NCBI GenBank assembly: GCA_020854825.1
Contig: JAHKLY010000007.1
Coordinates: 1 to 11,934 of the forward strand
Direction: 5' to 3'
Length of the DNA: 11,934 bases
DNA from: Candidatus Micrarchaeota archaeon
GTDB taxonomy: Archaea > Micrarchaeota > Micrarchaeia > Anstonellales > JAHKLY01
The notes beneath the pieces are model-generated. The model was not told the origin of the DNA, did no database searches, and saw only the letters and a list, made by a program, of their open reading frames with translations. The translations under genes were made by a program, and so were the position numbers. Every line of letters starts with the position of its first letter. Positions within the stretch are counted from its first letter, which is position 1. Positions 1 to 6,827 of the stretch are shown here, one piece after another.

Positions 1-228
1 ACTCTTATCCTAGGCAACAACCAAATCTCAGACATTAGCGCACTCTCCACCCTCACAAACTTACAACAACTTTACCTAAACAACAACCAAATCTCAGACA
101 TAAGCGCACTCTCCACCCTCACAAACTTAAATTATCTTGACCTAAACAACAACCAAATCTCAAACATTAGCACACTCTCCACCCTCTCAAACTTAAATTG
201 GCTTTACCTACGGGACAACCAAATCTCA
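1..228 (+). repeat. 66-bp tandem LRR-coding repeats, module 1 (4 units, first one partial)
   Basis: Recurrent scaffold aac caa atc tca (g/a)ac at(t/a) agc (g/a)ca ctc tcc acc ctc (a/t)ca aac tta at 66-nt spacing. Confidence 0.95.
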
Positions 229-3200
229 ACAAATCCCTTATGTCCTGCATCTGCTGAGCAAAATGCAACTTACGAAACATTAGAAGGTTATGGATGTTCA
301 ATCAATTGGGATTCACAATCCGAAGCAATTTGTGATGACGCTTGTGATAATGATGAAGATGGATTAGTGGATTGTGATGACAGCGATTGTGATGAAGATG
401 AGGCGTGTGAAGAAGAATGCACTCCAATCTCAATCCCTGACTCAGGCTTATTAAATGCAGTTTGTTCTGCATTAGGAGAAGACCCGGGATGCACAGTTAC
501 AGACTGCGATGCATTAACATTAACTGAACTATGGGCGAAGGATAGAGAAATCTCAGATTTAACAGGAATAGAATATTTCACAAACTTAAATACTCTTATC
601 CTAGGCAACAACCAAATCTCAAACATTAGCGCACTCTCCACCCTCTCAAACTTAAATTTTCTTTACCTATACAGCAACCAAATCTCAGACATAAGCGCAC
701 TCTCCACCCTCACAAACTTACAAGGTCTTTCCCTATGGGACAACCAAATCTCAGACATAAGCGCACTCTCCACCCTCACAAACTTAAATACTCTTGAACT
801 AGGCGGCAACAAAATCTCAGACATAAGCGCACTCTCCGGCCTCTCAAACTTAACTAAACTTTACTTAGGATCTAATCAGATTTCAATAAATCCAGAATGT
901 CCTGCGTCAGCTGTTCAACTAAGTATTAAAGCAGTATTAGAAGTATTGGGATGTTATGTTGATTGGTCTTCACAATCCGAAGCAATTTGTGATGATGGTT
1001 GTGATAATGATGAAGATAGATTAGTGGATTGTGATGACAGCGATTGTGATGAAGATAAAGCGCCTTTAGAATGTGCATTTACTGCATTGTGTCCAGATTG
1101 TGAAGTATGTGCAGGTGAACCAATGGGTTGTGATAAATTTGGAGCCACACCAGAAGAATGTAATGTACAATTAGGATGTGAACTAGTCCAGGAAAGCGTT
1201 TGCATATTAGGTGTAGATTGCGGTTCTTATGGAGAAGAGAGTGCATGTACAAAAGGAGGATGTTGTGATTGGGTGGATGTTAAAGGACAATGGCAATGTA
1301 CACAAAATTTTGATTGTAGTATTTATCAAAATGGACAGCAATGCTCTGGAAATCCATGCTGTTTATGGACATTAGGTTCTCCAGTTTGTAGTGGAACACC
1401 TGTTGCATGCGAAGACAGAGCCAAAGAAGAGTGTATTCTTGGCTGTTTAGTAGGTGGATATACAGATGACGAATCAGTAACATGTTATTCTGATAATGAG
1501 TGTTCAGTTTCTTGTGAAGTTGAAGAAGAAGTTGTATGCGAAGATAATAGTGTGTGTAAAATAGTTGCTTGTGACTCTGGAGAAAATTGTGATGAGTTTA
1601 TATTTGAAGATGCTTGTGGAAATGGAACTTGTAGCGATGAAGAATATGATATTACTATGTATTGCGGAGTTAATACAAACAGACTCCAATGCAGTGAGTA
1701 TGCAATAAATAATTTGATATACGCACATGGTGATGGAGTATGTGTTTTATTATATCATAACCAAGTAGGGATGAATAGCAATGAATTTTTAAATTATTGT
1801 GATTTTATTGGGGGCGAACGTGAGATTCCAAAAGAAGGTGAATCATTAACAGCAACAATATGTGATTGTGAAACTGAAGAACTTGTTTGTGATGGCTATA
1901 GAATTTGTAATGCTGGCCAAGGGCCAAATGAACAATTCTGCGGTTCAGGAACTTGTGGAGGAATAGAATATGAAGTAAACTCATATTGTCAATTATTTGT
2001 TGATTCTTTAGAAGAATGTGCAGAAGCTGTATTAAACCCAAATGTAATGACAGCATACCCCTATTATAGTGATGGAAATTGTATGATAGCAAATTATGAA
2101 GGTTCTGGTGCAGATGAAAGTCAATTCCAACAAGATTGTGCATTGATGGGTGCAACAACATCGCCAGTTCCTTTATCTGCAACAATGACTGCATGTGATT
2201 GCTCAGTAGACTGCAGTGATCCTGCAAATATTGATAAATTGGAATGTTGTTTTGACCCAACTGATAATTCAACCTTCTATAATAGGGTGTCAGTAGTAAA
2301 TAATATATTATACTTAATACAATCTGTTAGATTATGTGAAGGCGACTTTTACTTGCCAGCTCATGATGATTGGTATTATAATTCATACGGCCAACCCACC
2401 CCACCAAATGGGGAAGGTTTTGCGATTATAATGTCTGCAGAAGATGTGATATTATATGGGCCTCAATCCGGACCAGCAGTAATGAGAGGAAATAATACAG
2501 GGGTTGGTATTTGGATGCATGGTTCAAACAATATTATTGATGGGAATAATAATCTAATAATACAAGATTATTCAACTGCAATATTGGCAGAATCAATAAT
2601 AAGTAATCCTTTTGAATATAATATTAAGAATTTAATAATAAATGATGTTGCTAAAGGAATTCATATAAGGCCAAATCTTTTACTTATGCAACAAAGCCAG
2701 GTGACATACGGCAATATACAAAATGTTAATATAGACGGAACCTGTGGTACTGGAATTAAATTTGAACAAGCAAGCTTCAATAATGAGTTATTTGGTTTAA
2801 CAAAAGGGACAATTGAAAATTGTGAGATGGAATGCAACCAGCCTTATACAGGATTTAATGCAGATGTAAGAAATGTAATTTTAATAGCTAAAGACTCATT
2901 AGAAGTATTAAATGGAAATGATGCATTAATGACTACAAAACGAAAGGATGAAAATGTAGGGATTGAAGGCAATTTACAATATAATTCTGTGAATATAAAA
3001 ATTGATCCTGCTCAAAAAGCCCAATACGAACAAGGAAAAATTTTAAAATTTGAAGAGCCAGTAGATTTCATTAGAGGGGATTCAGGCAATTCATTATCAA
3101 TCAAAGAAAAAGAAACAGGAGTATATGGTATTGCATGGAAATCAGATTTGATAAACATAAGTAAAAACTTGCCAATGAACGCAGTTAATTTTGATAATAA

Positions 3201-4956
3201 ATTTATTTCTCTTGATTCACAGGAGATTCTAGAATATATTGAAGAGAAAACTATTGAAGTAACATTAGAATTAACTTCAGATATGGAATGTTCAAAGGCC
3301 ATAGTCTATAAATCCTCATCACATGTTGAGAATAGAGAAGCTATATTAACAGACATAAATAAAGAAGCAGTAATAAGAAATGGCCAATCAACAGTTGATT
3401 ATATCACAGTAACTTCTTGTGTTGATCCTGTATTGTTTGATCCTCAAGGAAATGATATAATTAATGGATATATTGTTTTTGAAGTAATGAACGGCCAATG
3501 GAGTTCATATACAGTCGCACAAGAGGGAGTTCCGGAGATTATAAGTATTGAAATAACACCGCAAGAGCCGACAAAAGACGATGATTTAGTTTGCACAGCC
3601 ATAGCTGTGAGTGATGAAGTAGACGAATTAAACGTAACGTTTACTTGGACAGAAGAAGGTGCGCCTTTCTCAATATCTGAAAATACAATTTCTTGTGAAT
3701 CTGGAGAAGAATGCACTGATACACTTTCTTCAGATGAAACATATTCAGACCAAGTATGGACCTGTACAGTAATTGCTTTTGATGGCGAAGAATATTCAAG
3801 TGAAGAATCAGATACAGTAACAATTCATATGGGTGAATTACCAGATGAAATCTGCGATGATGGCATTGATAATGATGGGGATGGTTTAGTAGACTGTGAA
3901 GACCCAGATTGTGATAATGAAACTTGTGATATTGGAAAAGTATGTATTAATTATGAATGTATATCTCCTACATCTCCATCAAGACCTTCACCTACTCCTT
4001 CAAATCCTAATTTAGAAATTGATACAATTGGGGAATATTGTGTTGGTGAAGAAATAACTTTTATAATAACTGATGAGTATAGTGATTTAATATCAACAGC
4101 AAAAATAGAGGAATCAAAAGTAAAATTAGGAACATTAGGATACACAAATTCAATTGGAGAATTTAGATATATATTTGAAAACACAGGAAATTACAGGATA
4201 GATGTATATAAATCAAGATATAATCCTGCATATCAATATATTTCAGTATCTGATTGTACAGGTTATTGTACTAGCAATAATGACTGTTTAACAGGATATT
4301 ATTGTGATGGAACGCAGTGTGTTGAATTAGAATGTTTACCTGGATTTACAGTATCAGGACATTCATGTGTTGCTCCTAAAGAATGTCAAACAGACAGTAA
4401 TTGTAAGCATGATCAATATTGTTCAGATGAAGGGTATTGTGAAATAGTTGAATGTGATTGCGGATATATAGCAGATCATCAATGTAATGAATATGAATGT
4501 TGTTCTGATATAGATTGCAAAGTGCCTATAGAATTATGTGTTAATAATGTTTGTACCCCAGTAAGTGATGATATAATAGAACAAACAGAAGGATCAAAAG
4601 AAGATTCAGCAATTGAGAGATTTGAGAAAAAACTATTGAATATAAAATCAAAATTAGGAGAATTATATATATTAATTGAGGAAGCAAAAATTACCGGACA
4701 AAATATAGATGAAATGCAAGAATTATTAGAACAAGCAAGAGCTTATGTATTACAAGGAGATTTTGAAAACGCAGAATTAACAATACAAAAAGCAAAATTC
4801 CAAGTAGAGGGTGAAGATAAAGATACAAGAATTGTGTATTTAGCATTATTGATAATTGTATTATTAATTTCAATGATGGTTTGGCACAATAAAACAAAAG
4901 CAGCAAATCATATAAAAACAAAAAATACTAAGAAAAAAACAAGAAAGAAAAGATAA
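1..4956 (+). CDS. Giant membrane-anchored surface protein (5'-truncated, >=1651 aa): tandem internalin-like LRR modules, Cys/Asp-rich CDDGxDNDxDGLVDC motifs, Cys-rich repeats, probable beta-helix and Ig-like domains, coiled coil, C-terminal TM helix and basic tail
   Basis: Frame +1 is open from base 1 (TLILGNNQISDISALSTLTNL...) into the listed ORF, so GTG 367 is an internal Val. 22-aa LRRs of the form LxxLxLxxNQISDISALSxLxN. C-terminal IVYLALLIIVLLISMMVW followed by a Lys/Arg-rich tail. Stop TAA at 4954-4956. Domain names come from motif recognition, not a database search. Confidence 0.9.
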   Translation, partial: TLILGNNQISDISALSTLTNLQQLYLNNNQISDISALSTLTNLNYLDLNNNQISNISTLSTLSNLNWLYLRDNQISTNPLCPASAEQNATYETLEGYGCSINWDSQSEAICDDACDNDEDGLVDCDDSDCDEDEACEEECTPISIPDSGLLNAVCSALGEDPGCTVTDCDALTLTELWAKDREISDLTGIEYFTNLNTLILGNNQISNISALSTLSNLNFLYLYSNQISDISALSTLTNLQGLSLWDNQISDISALSTLTNLNTLELGGNKISDISALSGLSNLTKLYLGSNQISINPECPASAVQLSIKAVLEVLGCYVDWSSQSEAICDDGCDNDEDRLVDCDDSDCDEDKAPLECAFTALCPDCEVCAGEPMGCDKFGATPEECNVQLGCELVQESVCILGVDCGSYGEESACTKGGCCDWVDVKGQWQCTQNFDCSIYQNGQQCSGNPCCLWTLGSPVCSGTPVACEDRAKEECILGCLVGGYTDDESVTCYSDNECSVSCEVEEEVVCEDNSVCKIVACDSGENCDEFIFEDACGNGTCSDEEYDITMYCGVNTNRLQCSEYAINNLIYAHGDGVCVLLYHNQVGMNSNEFLNYCDFIGGEREIPKEGESLTATICDCETEELVCDGYRICNAGQGPNEQFCGSGTCGGIEYEVNSYCQLFVDSLEECAEAVLNPNVMTAYPYYSDGNCMIANYEGSGADESQFQQDCALMGATTSPVPLSATMTACDCSVDCSDPANIDKLECCFDPTDNSTFYNRVSVVNNILYLIQSVRLCEGDFYLPAHDDWYYNSYGQPTPPNGEGFAIIMSAEDVILYGPQSGPAVMRGNNTGVGIWMHGSNNIIDGNNNLIIQDYSTAILAESIISNPFEYNIKNLIINDVAKGIHIRPNLLLMQQSQVTYGNIQNVNIDGTCGTGIKFEQASFNNELFGLTKGTIENCEMECNQPYTGFNADVRNVILIAKDSLEVLNGNDALMTTKRKDENVGIEGNLQYNSVNIKIDPAQKAQYEQGKILKFEEPVDFIRGDSGNSLSIKEKETGVYGIAWKSDLINISKNLPMNAVNFDNKFISLDSQEILEYIEEKTIEVTLELTSDMECSKAIVYKSSSHVENREAILTDINKEAVIRNGQSTVDYITVTSCVDPVLFDPQGNDIINGYIVFEVMNGQWSSYTVAQEGVPEIISIEITPQEPTKDDDLVCTAIAVSDEVDELNVTFTWTEEGAPFSISENTISCESGEECTDTLSSDETYSDQVWTCTVIAFDGEEYSSEESDTVTIHMGELPDEICDDGIDNDGDGLVDCEDPDCDNETCDIGKVCINYECISPTSPSRPSPTPSNPNLEIDTIGEYCVGEEITFIITDEYSDLISTAKIEESKVKLGTLGYTNSIGEFRYIFENTGNYRIDVYKSRYNPAYQYISVSDCTGYCTSNNDCLTGYYCDGTQCVELECLPGFTVSGHSCVAPKECQTDSNCKHDQYCSDEGYCEIVECDCGYIADHQCNEYECCSDIDCKVPIELCVNNVCTPVSDDIIEQTEGSKEDSAIERFEKKLLNIKSKLGELYILIEEAKITGQNIDEMQELLEQARAYVLQGDFENAELTIQKAKFQVEGEDKDTRIVYLALLIIVLLISMMVWHNKTKAANHIKTKNTKKKTRKKR
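313..1056 (+). repeat. 87-bp direct repeat closing each LRR module (313-399 and 970-1056)
   Basis: Encodes SQSEAICDDxCDNDEDxLVDCDDSDCDED. Three mismatches in 87 nt by manual comparison. Confidence 0.92.
580..885 (+). repeat. 66-bp tandem LRR-coding repeats, module 2 (5 units)
   Basis: Same scaffold as module 1. Bases 592-621 are identical to 1-30. The last unit is diverged at synonymous sites. Confidence 0.95.
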
Positions 4957-5048: not shown

Positions 5049-5112
5049 TTATTCTTCCTGTTTTTTCTTTTTAGTACAGGTTTTTCTTTTTTCTTAAAAA
5101 AGAAAAAAGTGT
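5049..5112 (-). other. tRNA-Leu intron 2 (64 nt, T-loop position 58/59)
   Basis: Central helix GTTC/GAAT with AAA bulges on both sides (relaxed BHB). Removal restores T-loop TTCAAAT. The exact register is inferred from BHB geometry because AAA occurs at both ends. Confidence 0.8.
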
Positions 5113-5159
5113 TTGAACACGCGAAGGCACTAAGCCACAGGGTCCTAAGCCCTGCCCGT

Positions 5160-5225
5160 TTAGCCAACCAATTTCCTAGTTCTTTTTTTTCTAGGTTTTC
5201 TTTTCTTTCAAGAAAAGAAAGGCTA
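5160..5225 (-). other. tRNA-Leu intron 1 (66 nt, D-loop position 21/22)
   Basis: BHB-like junction: central helix GGTC/GGCT, 3-nt bulges AAT and AAA, intron-side helix AGCC/GGTT. Cutting after the second bulge nucleotide on each side restores GGTCAAACGG. Confidence 0.85.
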
Positions 5226-5351
5226 TTGACCACTCCGGCACCCCTGCAATTAAATGTGAGTGGGAGTCATAAAACAAAGTTTTATTCAACCCCTGCGAAC
5301 ACTAAGTGTATAAATAATAATCGAAAAAGATAAAAAACAAGATGCAAGTGA

Positions 5352-5504
5352 TTACTTGACTGTTTTAAGGTCTTTTTTCTTTGGTCTCAGGTATGTGTAT
5401 CCGCATTTTCTGCATTTTTTAGCTCCTTTTTTATTTCTAGCTTTGCATTTTTTGCATATCCATATTTTTATTATTTGTGCATCTGCTTCTGGAAATTTTC
5501 CCAT
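5352..5504 (-). CDS. rpl40e: 50S ribosomal protein L40e (eL40), 50 aa
   Basis: Manual translation [50 protein letters not shown], with the C-x2-C-x-ARN...KCRKCG..LRPK zinc-ribbon signature of archaeal L40e. Shorter than any ORF in the track. Confidence 0.95.
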
Positions 5505-5507
5505 AAT

Positions 5508-5514
5508 ATCACCT
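5508..5514 (-). promoter_or_regulatory. Archaeal Shine-Dalgarno site of rpl40e
   Basis: AGGTGAT on the minus strand, 3 nt upstream of the ATG. Confidence 0.75.
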
Positions 5515-5741
5515 AAACATAATTTTATAAGTAAATTTATATATTAATTGTGTAAAGAACCATATTTAAACATTATGTTTTATAAAAATAATGTATTTTA
5601 GTCAGTTATATGTATAAAATAAGGTATGTTGTTTATATACCTAGTTTAAGTAAGTATGAATCTTACAGTCTTCGTCGTTTTGTAAATCAAAACGCTTTTG
5701 ACATCTATCTTTAATGGGCAGTTGTCAAATAAAGTGTGACA

Positions 5742-5828
5742 TTGATGTCAAATATTTGAATATATAATATTCAAATGCCTTTGACATTTTTGATGTCAAA
5801 TATTTGAATATATAATATTCAAATGCCT
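5742..5828 (+). repeat. 39-bp perfect direct repeat (5742-5780 and 5790-5828) built from palindromes and ending in the first 4 nt of tRNA-Thr
   Basis: TTGATGTCAAATATTTGAATATATAATATTCAAATGCCT occurs twice with period 48. Each copy is also preceded by TGACA. Confidence 0.92.
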
Positions 5829-5860
5829 CGGTAGCTCAGAGGTAGAGCGATCGCCTTGTA

Positions 5861-5923
5861 AGCACCTTTTCTTTGGAAAGAAAAGTTGCACCAAAAGAAA
5901 TTTTAATTCTCTTTTGATAGGAA
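5861..5923 (+). other. tRNA-Thr intron 1 (63 nt, canonical position 37/38)
   Basis: Central helix CTTG(32-35)/TAGG(5918-5921) with bulges TAA and AAA. Confidence 0.85.
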
Positions 5924-5944
5924 AGCGATAGGTCGGGGGTTCAA

Positions 5945-6042
5945 TTGGCCTTTTTCTTTCTTTTGAGAAAAGAAAGAAAAACCTCAACGAAAAAGAAAGA
6001 AAATGAGGTTTCTTAAAAAAAGGAAGAAGTAGATAAGAACAA
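5945..6042 (+). other. tRNA-Thr intron 2 (98 nt, T-loop position 58/59)
   Basis: Perfect central helix GTTC(5939-5942)/GAAC(6037-6040) with AAT bulges on both sides. Removal restores T-loop TTCAATT. Confidence 0.85.
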
Positions 6043-6065
6043 TTCCCTCCCGGGGCTTTTTATTT

Positions 6066-6827
6066 TTATATACTAATTATGCCAAATAAGTATAAAATAA
6101 AAATAATTACGGGTTGATGTAAAAAATAAATAATTAACGAATGTCTGCCAATATAATTTAAAGCATCTACTAATTTATTATTTGGATCTTTAATAAATCT
6201 AAATTGTCTTTTATAATTTTTATAAAACATATTCCCTAAAGATAGCCCTATTAATACAATGCCAAACCAAGGTAAAATTGGAAAATAATCAAATGTATTA
6301 AAATGATGTGGTATAAATCCCAACCAGAATAATTCATTAACATTGAACTGCAGGGTTTGTAAATAAAAACCAGTAATGATAATAAGAATACCAATAATTA
6401 AATTATAAATATTTTTTTCTTTTATTAAATTAAATTTAAGAAATGGAATAGAAAGAATTATTGAAATTCCAATTAAATGTAGTATTCCAAATCTGATAAA
6501 ATTATTGGGAAAAATTAGCCAAGTGATACTACTTATTATTAACCCAAGAGAAAATATTTTTAAACCTCTTAAAAATAATTTTATATATCTGTTTGATTTA
6601 TCAATCTGGTTTTTTGAATAACTTAATGTTAAAGAAATTCCTACTAATAAAAGAAAAAGAATAGCTGCACTTCTACCTATTAATAAAAATAAGGCAGAAT
6701 GAATATCAAATGCATAGTTTCCAAAATATGATAAATCAAATAAGAGATGATATATGATCATTAAAATTATGGCAATTCCTCTAAGAGAATCTATCTCCCA
6801 AAATCTATTTATTTTAGAATTTTTCAT
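6066..6827 (-). CDS. DUF1624 / heparan-alpha-glucosaminide N-acetyltransferase (HGSNAT)-like multi-pass membrane protein, 253 aa
   Basis: Family motifs RFWEIDSLRGIAIILMIIYH, FGILHLIG, DYFPILPWFG and GRHSLIIYFLHQP, plus several hydrophobic helices. Confidence 0.88.
   Translation of the reverse strand: MKNSKINRFWEIDSLRGIAIILMIIYHLLFDLSYFGNYAFDIHSALFLLIGRSAAILFLLLVGISLTLSYSKNQIDKSNRYIKLFLRGLKIFSLGLIISSITWLIFPNNFIRFGILHLIGISIILSIPFLKFNLIKEKNIYNLIIGILIIITGFYLQTLQFNVNELFWLGFIPHHFNTFDYFPILPWFGIVLIGLSLGNMFYKNYKRQFRFIKDPNNKLVDALNYIGRHSLIIYFLHQPVIIFILYLFGIISI

Follow-up and report, generated by a model that had tools for sequence, protein, structure and literature searches.

A small, probably mobile module with mirror symmetry in the predicted tRNA introns of a Micrarchaeota-like archaeon

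We describe a small repeated module that lies in the predicted introns of two tRNA genes on an 11,934-nt stretch of DNA from a Candidatus Micrarchaeota archaeon. This stretch (the window) is the entire 11.9-kb contig C6 of a genome that we call G000, which comprises 828 kb in 7 contigs with about 28% G+C (range 27.5-31%) and an estimated completeness of 97.6%. Four segments interrupt the two tRNA genes. We consider it likely that they represent introns of the bulge-helix-bulge (BHB) type in two genuine tRNA genes, and that all four have as their basis one small, non-coding, repeated and recently mobile module of about 40-55 nt, belonging to an ARMAN/Micrarchaeota-like (DPANN) lineage. An initial annotation of this DNA had proposed one intron family at three positions in two tRNAs, and this was borne out: positions 21/22, 37/38 and, twice, 58/59 are occupied, and one common core runs through all four introns.

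ARAGORN and Rfam gave zero tRNA matches on the unspliced window; Rfam found no ribozyme family there, and indeed zero matches of any kind. Reading both strands by eye, we observed two tRNA genes in pieces, one on each strand. The genes and their introns are as follows.

5247-5034, minus strand: tRNA-Leu(TAG) gene, read by eye; exons 5247-5226, 5159-5113 and 5048-5034, whose final base is the discriminator
5225-5160, minus strand: Leu-i1, 66 nt, position 21/22 (border of D-loop and D-stem); central helix GGTC (exon)/GGCT (intron)
5112-5049, minus strand: Leu-i2, 64 nt, T-loop position 58/59; central helix GTTC/GAAT
5826-6057, plus strand: tRNA-Thr(TGT) gene, read by eye; exons 5826-5860, 5924-5944 and 6043-6057
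5861-5923, plus strand: Thr-i1, 63 nt, canonical position 37/38; central helix CTTG/TAGG
5945-6042, plus strand: Thr-i2, 98 nt, T-loop position 58/59; central helix GTTC/GAAC

The outer limits given by the initial annotation, 5049 and 6042, are thus the 3' ends of Leu-i2 and Thr-i2. When the four introns were cut out by coordinate, ARAGORN called a tRNA-Thr(tgt) and an 84-nt tRNA-Leu(tag). The intronless tRNA-Thr(TGT) orthologues of four other genomes (G003, G013, G029 and G039) align onto the three Thr exons. The intron boundaries in the window were set by the BHB rule together with paralogues and orthologues, and not by ARAGORN.

In archaeal BHB motifs, a 4-bp central helix has a 3-nt bulge on either side; the 5' exon ends with one strand of a 4-nt helix followed by two bulge bases, and the intron ends with the complementary 4 nt followed by two bulge bases. 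We observed that in 4/4 introns the 3' tetramer pairs with the exon bases 3-6 nt ahead of the 5' cut (G-U pairs allowed), as the initial annotation had noticed. The pairing consists of four Watson-Crick pairs in Thr-i2 (GAAC/GTTC), of three and one G-U pair in Leu-i2 (GAAT/GTTC), and of two and two G-U pairs in both Thr-i1 (TAGG/CTTG) and Leu-i1 (GGCT/GGTC). The GGCT of Leu-i1 is also perfectly complementary to that intron's own AGCC, and the cut of Thr-i1 is ambiguous across a repeated AAGC. The outer helices are partly weak, giving a BHB motif of the relaxed form. From these ends and the reassembled exons, Leu-i1, Leu-i2, Thr-i1 and Thr-i2 would be endonuclease-spliced BHB introns of two real tRNA genes. 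In the genome as a whole, ARAGORN recovers only 11 tRNAs, several with doubtful anticodons, and 7/25 Rfam matches exceed the cut-off; the tRNA finders recover so few because copies of the element interrupt the tRNA genes.

The core common to the four introns consists of a pyrimidine run (Y), a short loop, a complementary purine run (R1), a linker of 6-8 nt and a second purine run (R2). Agreement of R2 with R1 is given below as the number of matching positions when R1 is read backwards (mirror) or, where listed, forwards (direct).

5220-5180, minus strand: Leu-i1 core; Y 5220-5210, loop 5209-5208, R1 5207-5197, linker 5196-5191, R2 5190-5180; mirror 10/11
5107-5061, minus strand: Leu-i2 core; Y 5107-5096, loop 5095-5093, R1 5092-5081, linker 5080-5073, R2 5072-5061; mirror 12/12, direct 11/12
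5866-5900, plus strand: Thr-i1 core; Y 5866-5874, loop 5875-5876, R1 5877-5885, linker 5886-5891, R2 5892-5900; mirror 8/9
5951-6003, plus strand: Thr-i2 core; Y 5951-5964, loop 5965-5967, R1 5968-5981, linker 5982-5989, R2 5990-6003; mirror 14/14, direct 13/14

We further estimated the folds of the introns as ViennaRNA minimum-energy structures, with z-scores taken against 200 shuffles. The z-scores were -3.2 for Leu-i1, -3.1 for Leu-i2, -2.2 for Thr-i1 and -2.1 for Thr-i2. For Leu-i1, Leu-i2 and Thr-i1 the minimum-energy structure is that of the long Y/R hairpin; in Leu-i1 this hairpin is predicted to have 10 bp and to be accompanied by a closing AGCC/GGCU stem and by a CCUAG/CUAGG stem. In Thr-i1, R2 is predicted to pair with another pyrimidine run further downstream. 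The initial annotation had described three introns running from a long hairpin directly into a second stem that opens with CCT and closes with AGG. This second stem is predicted for Leu-i1, Leu-i2 and Thr-i2, with R2 of Thr-i2 located in the loop of its CCTCA/TGAGG stem; the long hairpin did not hold for Thr-i2, where the minimum-energy structure gives the pyrimidine run a different partner. The shared 3' features were seen as claimed, with AGGAA near the 3' end of all four introns and AGGAAGAA in both 58/59 introns.

The second purine run has the bases of R1 in reverse order, unlike a direct or an inverted copy. R1, the short spacer and R2 together form a homopurine mirror repeat. Among 39 asymmetric hairpins with a downstream purine partner in G000, mirror order fitted better than direct order in 34, equally well in 3 and worse in 2, and full-length matches numbered 23 in mirror and 2 in direct order. 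When partners were swapped among the 21 distinct patterns, none of 62 swapped pairs matched in full, while 9/21 did so with their own partner. Loci from other genomes, which have new G-spacing patterns, gave a mirror match that was better in 26 cases, equal in 6 and worse in 4. A covariance model found the module in 26/151 sampled genomes of the phylum, and in none of the 46 and 25 genomes of two families. In the T-loop intron of tRNA-Leu(GAG) of genome G004 (locus L021), the linker between R1 and R2 reaches 53 nt by way of two extra GC-rich hairpins, and R2 is an exact mirror (13/13).

The family was evaluated genome-wide by a scan for perfect pyrimidine/purine hairpins with a loop of 2-7 nt, a linker mostly of 6-8 nt and a required R2. 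We observed 46 full cores in G000, as against 1-4 in five third-order Markov genomes. Counted as Y/R hairpin orientations with a stem of at least 9, there were 98 in G000 and 2-8 in the Markov genomes; with a stem of at least 7 the counts were 136 and 72-96. The linkers across copies share motifs of the CCTCAACG, CGTTAACG, CCCTAGGG and CCTGTACT types, and the copies are therefore homologous and not just alike in composition.

Outside the window, the positions and hosts of the cores were assigned by eye from their flanks. On this assignment, 34/46 cores lie in tRNA genes, 5/46 begin 1-5 nt past the stop codon of an open reading frame (ORF), 5/46 are in spacers adjoining tRNA genes and 2/46 are in a GC-rich host on contig C7. 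The copies in tRNA genes fall in the T-loop (16), the anticodon loop (8), the D-loop or D-arm (5), around positions 53-55 (4) and at one other site. The family thus occupies 21/22, 37/38 and 58/59 in the window and the D-loop, 53-55 and 59/60 elsewhere (again by eye), in tRNAs for many amino acids. The post-stop copies follow ORFs for an S10-like protein, a DnaK-like protein, the thermosome, an 892-aa protein and a 105-aa protein. One spacer copy lies directly 3' of tRNA-Trp and is kept in both G000 and a second genome of the same genus, G001. All four introns of the window have the orientation of their own tRNA, as the initial annotation had pointed out, and this extends to 34/34 intronic and 5/5 post-stop copies genome-wide; random orientation was not seen. 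The GC-rich host on C7 (C7:6338-6475, locus L057) carries two modules and has no Rfam match; the segment between the modules has C-box-like (GTGATGA) and D-box-like (CTGA) motifs.

Copies in different tRNAs can be close to identical. Thr-i2 agrees at 91/98 positions with an intron on another contig, that in the T-loop of tRNA-Cys(GCA), and the differences are clustered at the exon-facing ends. A 58-nt stretch of Leu-i2 is 100% identical to two places in G001. One falls within the T-loop intron of another tRNA, and the G000 orthologue of that tRNA lacks an intron there. The second adjoins an assembly gap and might not be a separate copy. The 5' half of Thr-i1 is nearly identical to the 37/38 intron of tRNA-Asn(GTT) in G001. 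Position 21/22 is also occupied in tRNA-Leu(TAA), by an intron of the family, and in tRNA-Leu(GAG), by an intron of another kind.

The initial annotation had suggested a comparison with orthologous tRNAs of relatives. In other families of the order, the tRNA-Thr(TGT) orthologues are intronless in 4/4 cases (G003, G013, G029 and G039). Those of tRNA-Leu(TAG) are intronless in 7/10 (G026, G038, G029, G008, G036, G024 and G037), and the remaining 3/10 (G019, G031 and G012) have a T-loop intron of another kind; none of the 10 has a 21/22 intron. Directly after the intronless tRNA-Leu(TAG) of G038 (locus L023) there are two tandem element-like units, made up of a Y/R hairpin, a CCTGCACT linker, a purine run and CAGGAAAAAC; the final 9 nt of the tRNA come after each of them. 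These units look like intron and 3' exon remains left when this tRNA-Leu(TAG) became intronless.

We also compared G000 with G001, which has 37 covariance-model matches. The comparison covered 19 orthologous tRNA pairs with exon identities of 95-100% (the pair of cluster 0, G001 locus L110, was left out). Nine intron sites are occupied in one genome only. Three are private to G001 (the D-loop of tRNA-Ala(TGC), the T-loop of the next tRNA and the anticodon loop of tRNA-Cys) and six to G000 (position 21/22 of tRNA-Leu(GAG) and of tRNA-Leu(TAA), the T-loops of tRNA-Ala(CGC) and tRNA-Thr(CGT), the D-loop of tRNA-Asp and one further T-loop). A number of the sites that both genomes share show replacement of the intron by one of another subfamily, with coordinated differences in Y, R1 and R2. 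Several other orthologous introns are 95-100% conserved between the two genomes. Introns fixed at the same positions with no copies elsewhere are thus not what we found.

The copy behind the thermosome gene is absent from the orthologous flanks of G001, G004 and G005. Since this copy is private to G000, the element's spread takes place in DNA and reaches beyond tRNA genes. The proposal of a mobile mini-intron therefore stood as regards mobility, and was too narrow in treating the element only as an intron, since five copies lie just past stop codons. Behind the thermosome module of G000 (C3:138903-139010, locus L013), a purine-rich unit of 13 nt, of the CAAAAGAACAAAA type, is repeated about seven times in tandem. 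This repeat is not in the G001 flank.

The genome encodes a single splicing endonuclease, EndA (414 aa), with a full-length match to PDB 4FZ2 (E = 2e-136). This structure is the epsilon2 endonuclease of ARMAN-2, reported to cut strict and relaxed motifs at non-canonical positions (PMC3488258, PMC3239211). The RNA ligase RtcB is also encoded in G000. As regards mobilisation, profile searches of the whole of G000 gave no match to RVT_1 (reverse transcriptase), Y1_Tnp or the TnpB zinc ribbon, homing endonucleases not having been searched for separately; the remark of the initial annotation that no mobilising enzyme is encoded in the window thus extends to these three types in the genome. Since no reverse transcriptase was found, a route through an RNA intermediate is without support here. 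The mover is most likely host recombination or repair, or an enzyme acting in trans, given that no mobilising enzyme was found in G000. The RtcB gene itself (C1:3685-6369) is a single open frame of 937 aa, in which the two parts matching the family are separated by about 450 residues. This suggests an intein-like insertion.

Together, these observations suggest the following course. Copies would arrive in DNA, in a single orientation. Within tRNA genes they would persist only where the intron ends and the flanking exon can form a bulge-helix-bulge, from which the broad-specificity epsilon2 endonuclease of the host would excise them and RtcB would rejoin the exons. Outside genes they would persist in spacers, strikingly often 1-5 nt past a stop codon. 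Gain, loss and swapping for other copies would take place on the time-scale of species within one genus, with movement most likely by host recombination or repair or by an enzyme supplied in trans. The idea that a non-coding element spreads into tRNAs and is tolerated through host splicing is thus supported by the tests of orthologues, copy number, orientation and identity.

We evaluated three other explanations. That the introns are merely A/T-rich, low-complexity segments which resemble each other by chance in a genome of 28% G+C is hardly credible. The composition (27.5-31% G+C, with runs only of A and G or of T and C) does lend itself to such resemblance, and the Markov genomes still gave their 72-96 short hairpin orientations against the 136 real ones. 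However, the same genomes gave only 1-4 modules against 46 and 2-8 long hairpin orientations against 98; in addition, linker motifs are shared, identities between copies reach 91/98 and 58/58, and the partner swap gave 9/21 against 0/62. Coincidence of low-complexity sequence was refuted by the Markov-genome and partner-swap controls.

We regard it as improbable that these are old, vertically inherited introns kept alike by gene conversion (concerted evolution), with all differences between genomes being losses and with no transposition. The T-loop and D-loop flanks are near-universal among tRNAs and could guide conversion, paralogous tRNA-Leu genes have introns at the same two positions, and some introns are, as noted, 95-100% conserved between G000 and G001. 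However, one subfamily (with a T3CT4CT2 core and a CCCTAGGG-type linker) is found at D-loop, 21/22, anticodon-loop and 53-55 positions, and copies exist outside tRNA genes, the thermosome one being private to G000. The intronless orthologues in most other families of the order, and the three sites occupied only in G001 and six only in G000, also argue against it. We see a minor chance that the module is instead a host-serving signal that was repeatedly recruited, as a terminator or 3'-end protection, as a handle for pre-tRNA processing or a chaperone, or as the precursor of a small or circular RNA that is stable after excision. Archaeal oligo-T terminators are T-rich, and the pyrimidine run is similarly T-rich. 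The five copies that begin 1-5 nt past stop codons (those of the S10-like, DnaK-like and thermosome genes included) always lie in gene direction, a copy follows the tRNA-Trp 3' end in G000 and G001, and the three-part symmetry is kept across the 26/151 sampled genomes, which argues for selection on the module itself. Yet a terminator within 34 tRNA-gene sites would be harmful, the intron sites turn over fast, and decayed copies exist (e.g. with R2 deletions, cluster 14). G001, G004 and G005 all lack the thermosome copy, and a conserved terminator role at orthologous gene ends was accordingly unsupported for this gene.

Several points weigh against reading the four segments as introns built on a recently mobile module. 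Splicing, the cut sites and any excised or circular intron are predicted from sequence alone, and two of the four central helices depend on two G-U pairs each. An automated search for BHB-compatible cuts showed that ARAGORN accepts many alternative cuts and odd anticodons. A search of G001 for orthologues of the window's tRNA-Leu(TAG) and tRNA-Thr(TGT) did not find them. The differences between genomes are ones of presence and absence, and each could be a gain or a loss. Paralogous tRNA-Leu genes with introns at the same sites may owe them to common descent or gene conversion. The context of the cores outside the window was, as stated, assigned by eye, and their strict orientation could reflect selection instead of mechanism. 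To the negative profile searches in G000 must be added that Y1_Tnp matches occurred in only 2/5 element-rich genomes searched.

Metagenomic DNA was also compared with the window. Contigs from 4/4 sludge-metagenome runs join positions 5159 and 5226, leaving out exactly the 66 nt of Leu-i1, with a shorter side of only 24 nt; this provides independent corroboration for one of the intron boundaries. This intronless joint is probably the gene of another organism or a paralogous intronless tRNA-Leu. Otherwise the contig mapping showed only contig breaks, together with a summed depth that was higher over the repeat cores, from which no reading is drawn.

Copying from a template cannot make mirror repeats, and the simplest reading of the R1/R2 relation is therefore selection for a fold-back, three-stranded structure. 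The mirror would be the signature of a triple helix, in which R2 may lie in the groove of the Y:R1 helix, in RNA or single-stranded DNA, in a form needed by the element. On the sense strand R2 would run antiparallel to R1 (purine motif), and on the complementary strand a pyrimidine motif would result. ViennaRNA yields only the Y/R1 hairpin, base triples being outside its model. Two points speak against this fold: long purine-motif triplexes are disfavoured for RNA strands, and in three introns of the window the predicted stem encloses R2, which is incompatible with a full-length triplex. We therefore put forward only tentatively the possibility of a new kind of small, non-autonomous DPANN mobile element, defined by a natural intramolecular purine-motif triplex that either the transcript or the non-template DNA strand, when displaced, would form. 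Such a triplex might enable copying into new sites or recognition and processing, and the element would colonise tRNA genes as ready-made spliceable introns, as well as gene ends, without encoding any enzyme.

Similar structures are known from other settings. H-DNA is formed by homopurine mirror repeats and includes intramolecular purine-motif (R.R-Y) triplexes, described for duplex genomic tracts. The arrangement of R1, spacer and R2 is likewise a homopurine mirror repeat, and the upstream Y means that one strand holds the whole potential fold-back triplex, with a 6-8-nt turn; unlike H-DNA, it belongs to a mobile module and intron instead of a duplex genomic tract, and its fold is proposed from sequence symmetry. 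The triple-helix RNA stability elements (the ENE of PAN and the MALAT1 3' end) have two U-rich strands around one A-rich strand (U.A-U). What they have in common with the present module is a structured element, located at the 3' end of an RNA, that brings a purine tract together with a U-rich helix; the sense strand of the module, in contrast, supplies two purine strands and a single pyrimidine strand. Non-autonomous elements moved by HUH/Y1 enzymes (IS200/IS605-derived PATE/MITE, REP-RAYT) are small, strand-specific, hairpin-centred non-coding repeats. Like the module, they insert in a single orientation next to short target motifs; in contrast, here no Y1 transposase was found in G000, there are no paired end hairpins, and many copies are putatively spliceable introns.

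The closest comparison is with tRNA intron transposition in Thermoproteales (Fujishima et al. 2010, Mol Biol Evol, as summarised in PMC4033280; cited in PMC3239211). In that summary, as here, similar BHB introns occur in diverse tRNAs, at non-canonical positions and several per gene, with rapid gain inferred and a broad-specificity endonuclease. The phylum differs, and the endonuclease is (alpha-beta)2 there and epsilon2 here; measured against the PMC4033280 summary, the structured Y/R1/mirror-R2 module, its mirror symmetry and the copies after stop codons are particular to the present case. The initial annotation had invoked transposition of this type, possibly through RNA intermediates. Similar introns in different tRNAs agree with it, while the lineage is ARMAN/Micrarchaeota-like and the RNA route found no support.

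For Candidatus Micrarchaeum acidiphilum ARMAN-2, published work reports disrupted tRNA genes, T-loop introns at 53/54 and 59/60, and strict and relaxed BHB motifs (PMC3239211, PMC3488258). The EndA type (4FZ2), the introns at various positions including the T-loop, and the strict or relaxed BHB are alike. The introns quoted there are 13 and 25 nt, and the passages concerned mention no shared repeat module, whereas those of the window are 63-98 nt and of one family. A literature search of titles and abstracts, with subscription papers (Fujishima 2010 included) outside its scope, gave no account of such a module.

Some further features were observed near the tRNA genes and elsewhere. Just 5' of tRNA-Thr, at 5737-5825, there is a tandem duplication of about 57 nt with two palindromes (of the TGACAT..ATGTCA and AATATT..AATATT types). 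Each unit ends with AAATGCCT, a copy of the first bases of tRNA-Thr, and the duplication may be a duplicated promoter region or a rearrangement relic. Upstream of several tRNA genes, at C1:37600-37700, C1:11000-11065 and C2:900-960 (clusters 0, 2 and 3), there are mini pseudo-tRNA pieces; each repeats the initial 8 nt of the tRNA and also has a short hairpin and a 3' end of the AAAATCCC... type. These may be recombination relics at tRNA genes. The 16S rRNA match (C4:89709-93474) spans 3766 nt for a model of 1478 positions, i.e. with about 2.3 kb of insertions; the 23S rRNA match has no such excess length.

The other genes of the window are as follows.

5352-5504, minus strand: ORF for a basic 50-aa protein with two CxxC pairs, between the two tRNA genes; presumably like ribosomal protein L40e
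6066-6827: HGSNAT-type acyltransferase
1-4956, plus strand: very large ORF running off the contig end
6892-11934, minus strand: very large ORF running off the contig end

One of the two large ORFs has leucine-rich repeats and the other has MopE-type metal-binding and NosD-like repeats; both are probably surface proteins.

The element would be a new form of the known intron transposition in archaea, defined by a module, mirror-symmetric and with copies beyond introns. The question how archaea gain their tRNA introns is still open, and transposition has so far been deduced from similar sequences in a single crenarchaeal order. In the present case, roughly half of the tRNA genes that were compared differ between two species of the same genus, and near-identical copies are found in unrelated tRNAs and in spacers, so that the course of gain, loss and replacement can be followed nearly as it happens. 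Standard finders miss such genes, and the tRNA sets of such genomes are thus badly under-called. The conserved mirror-purine tract provides a concrete and cheaply testable structural hypothesis, that of a natural three-stranded fold.

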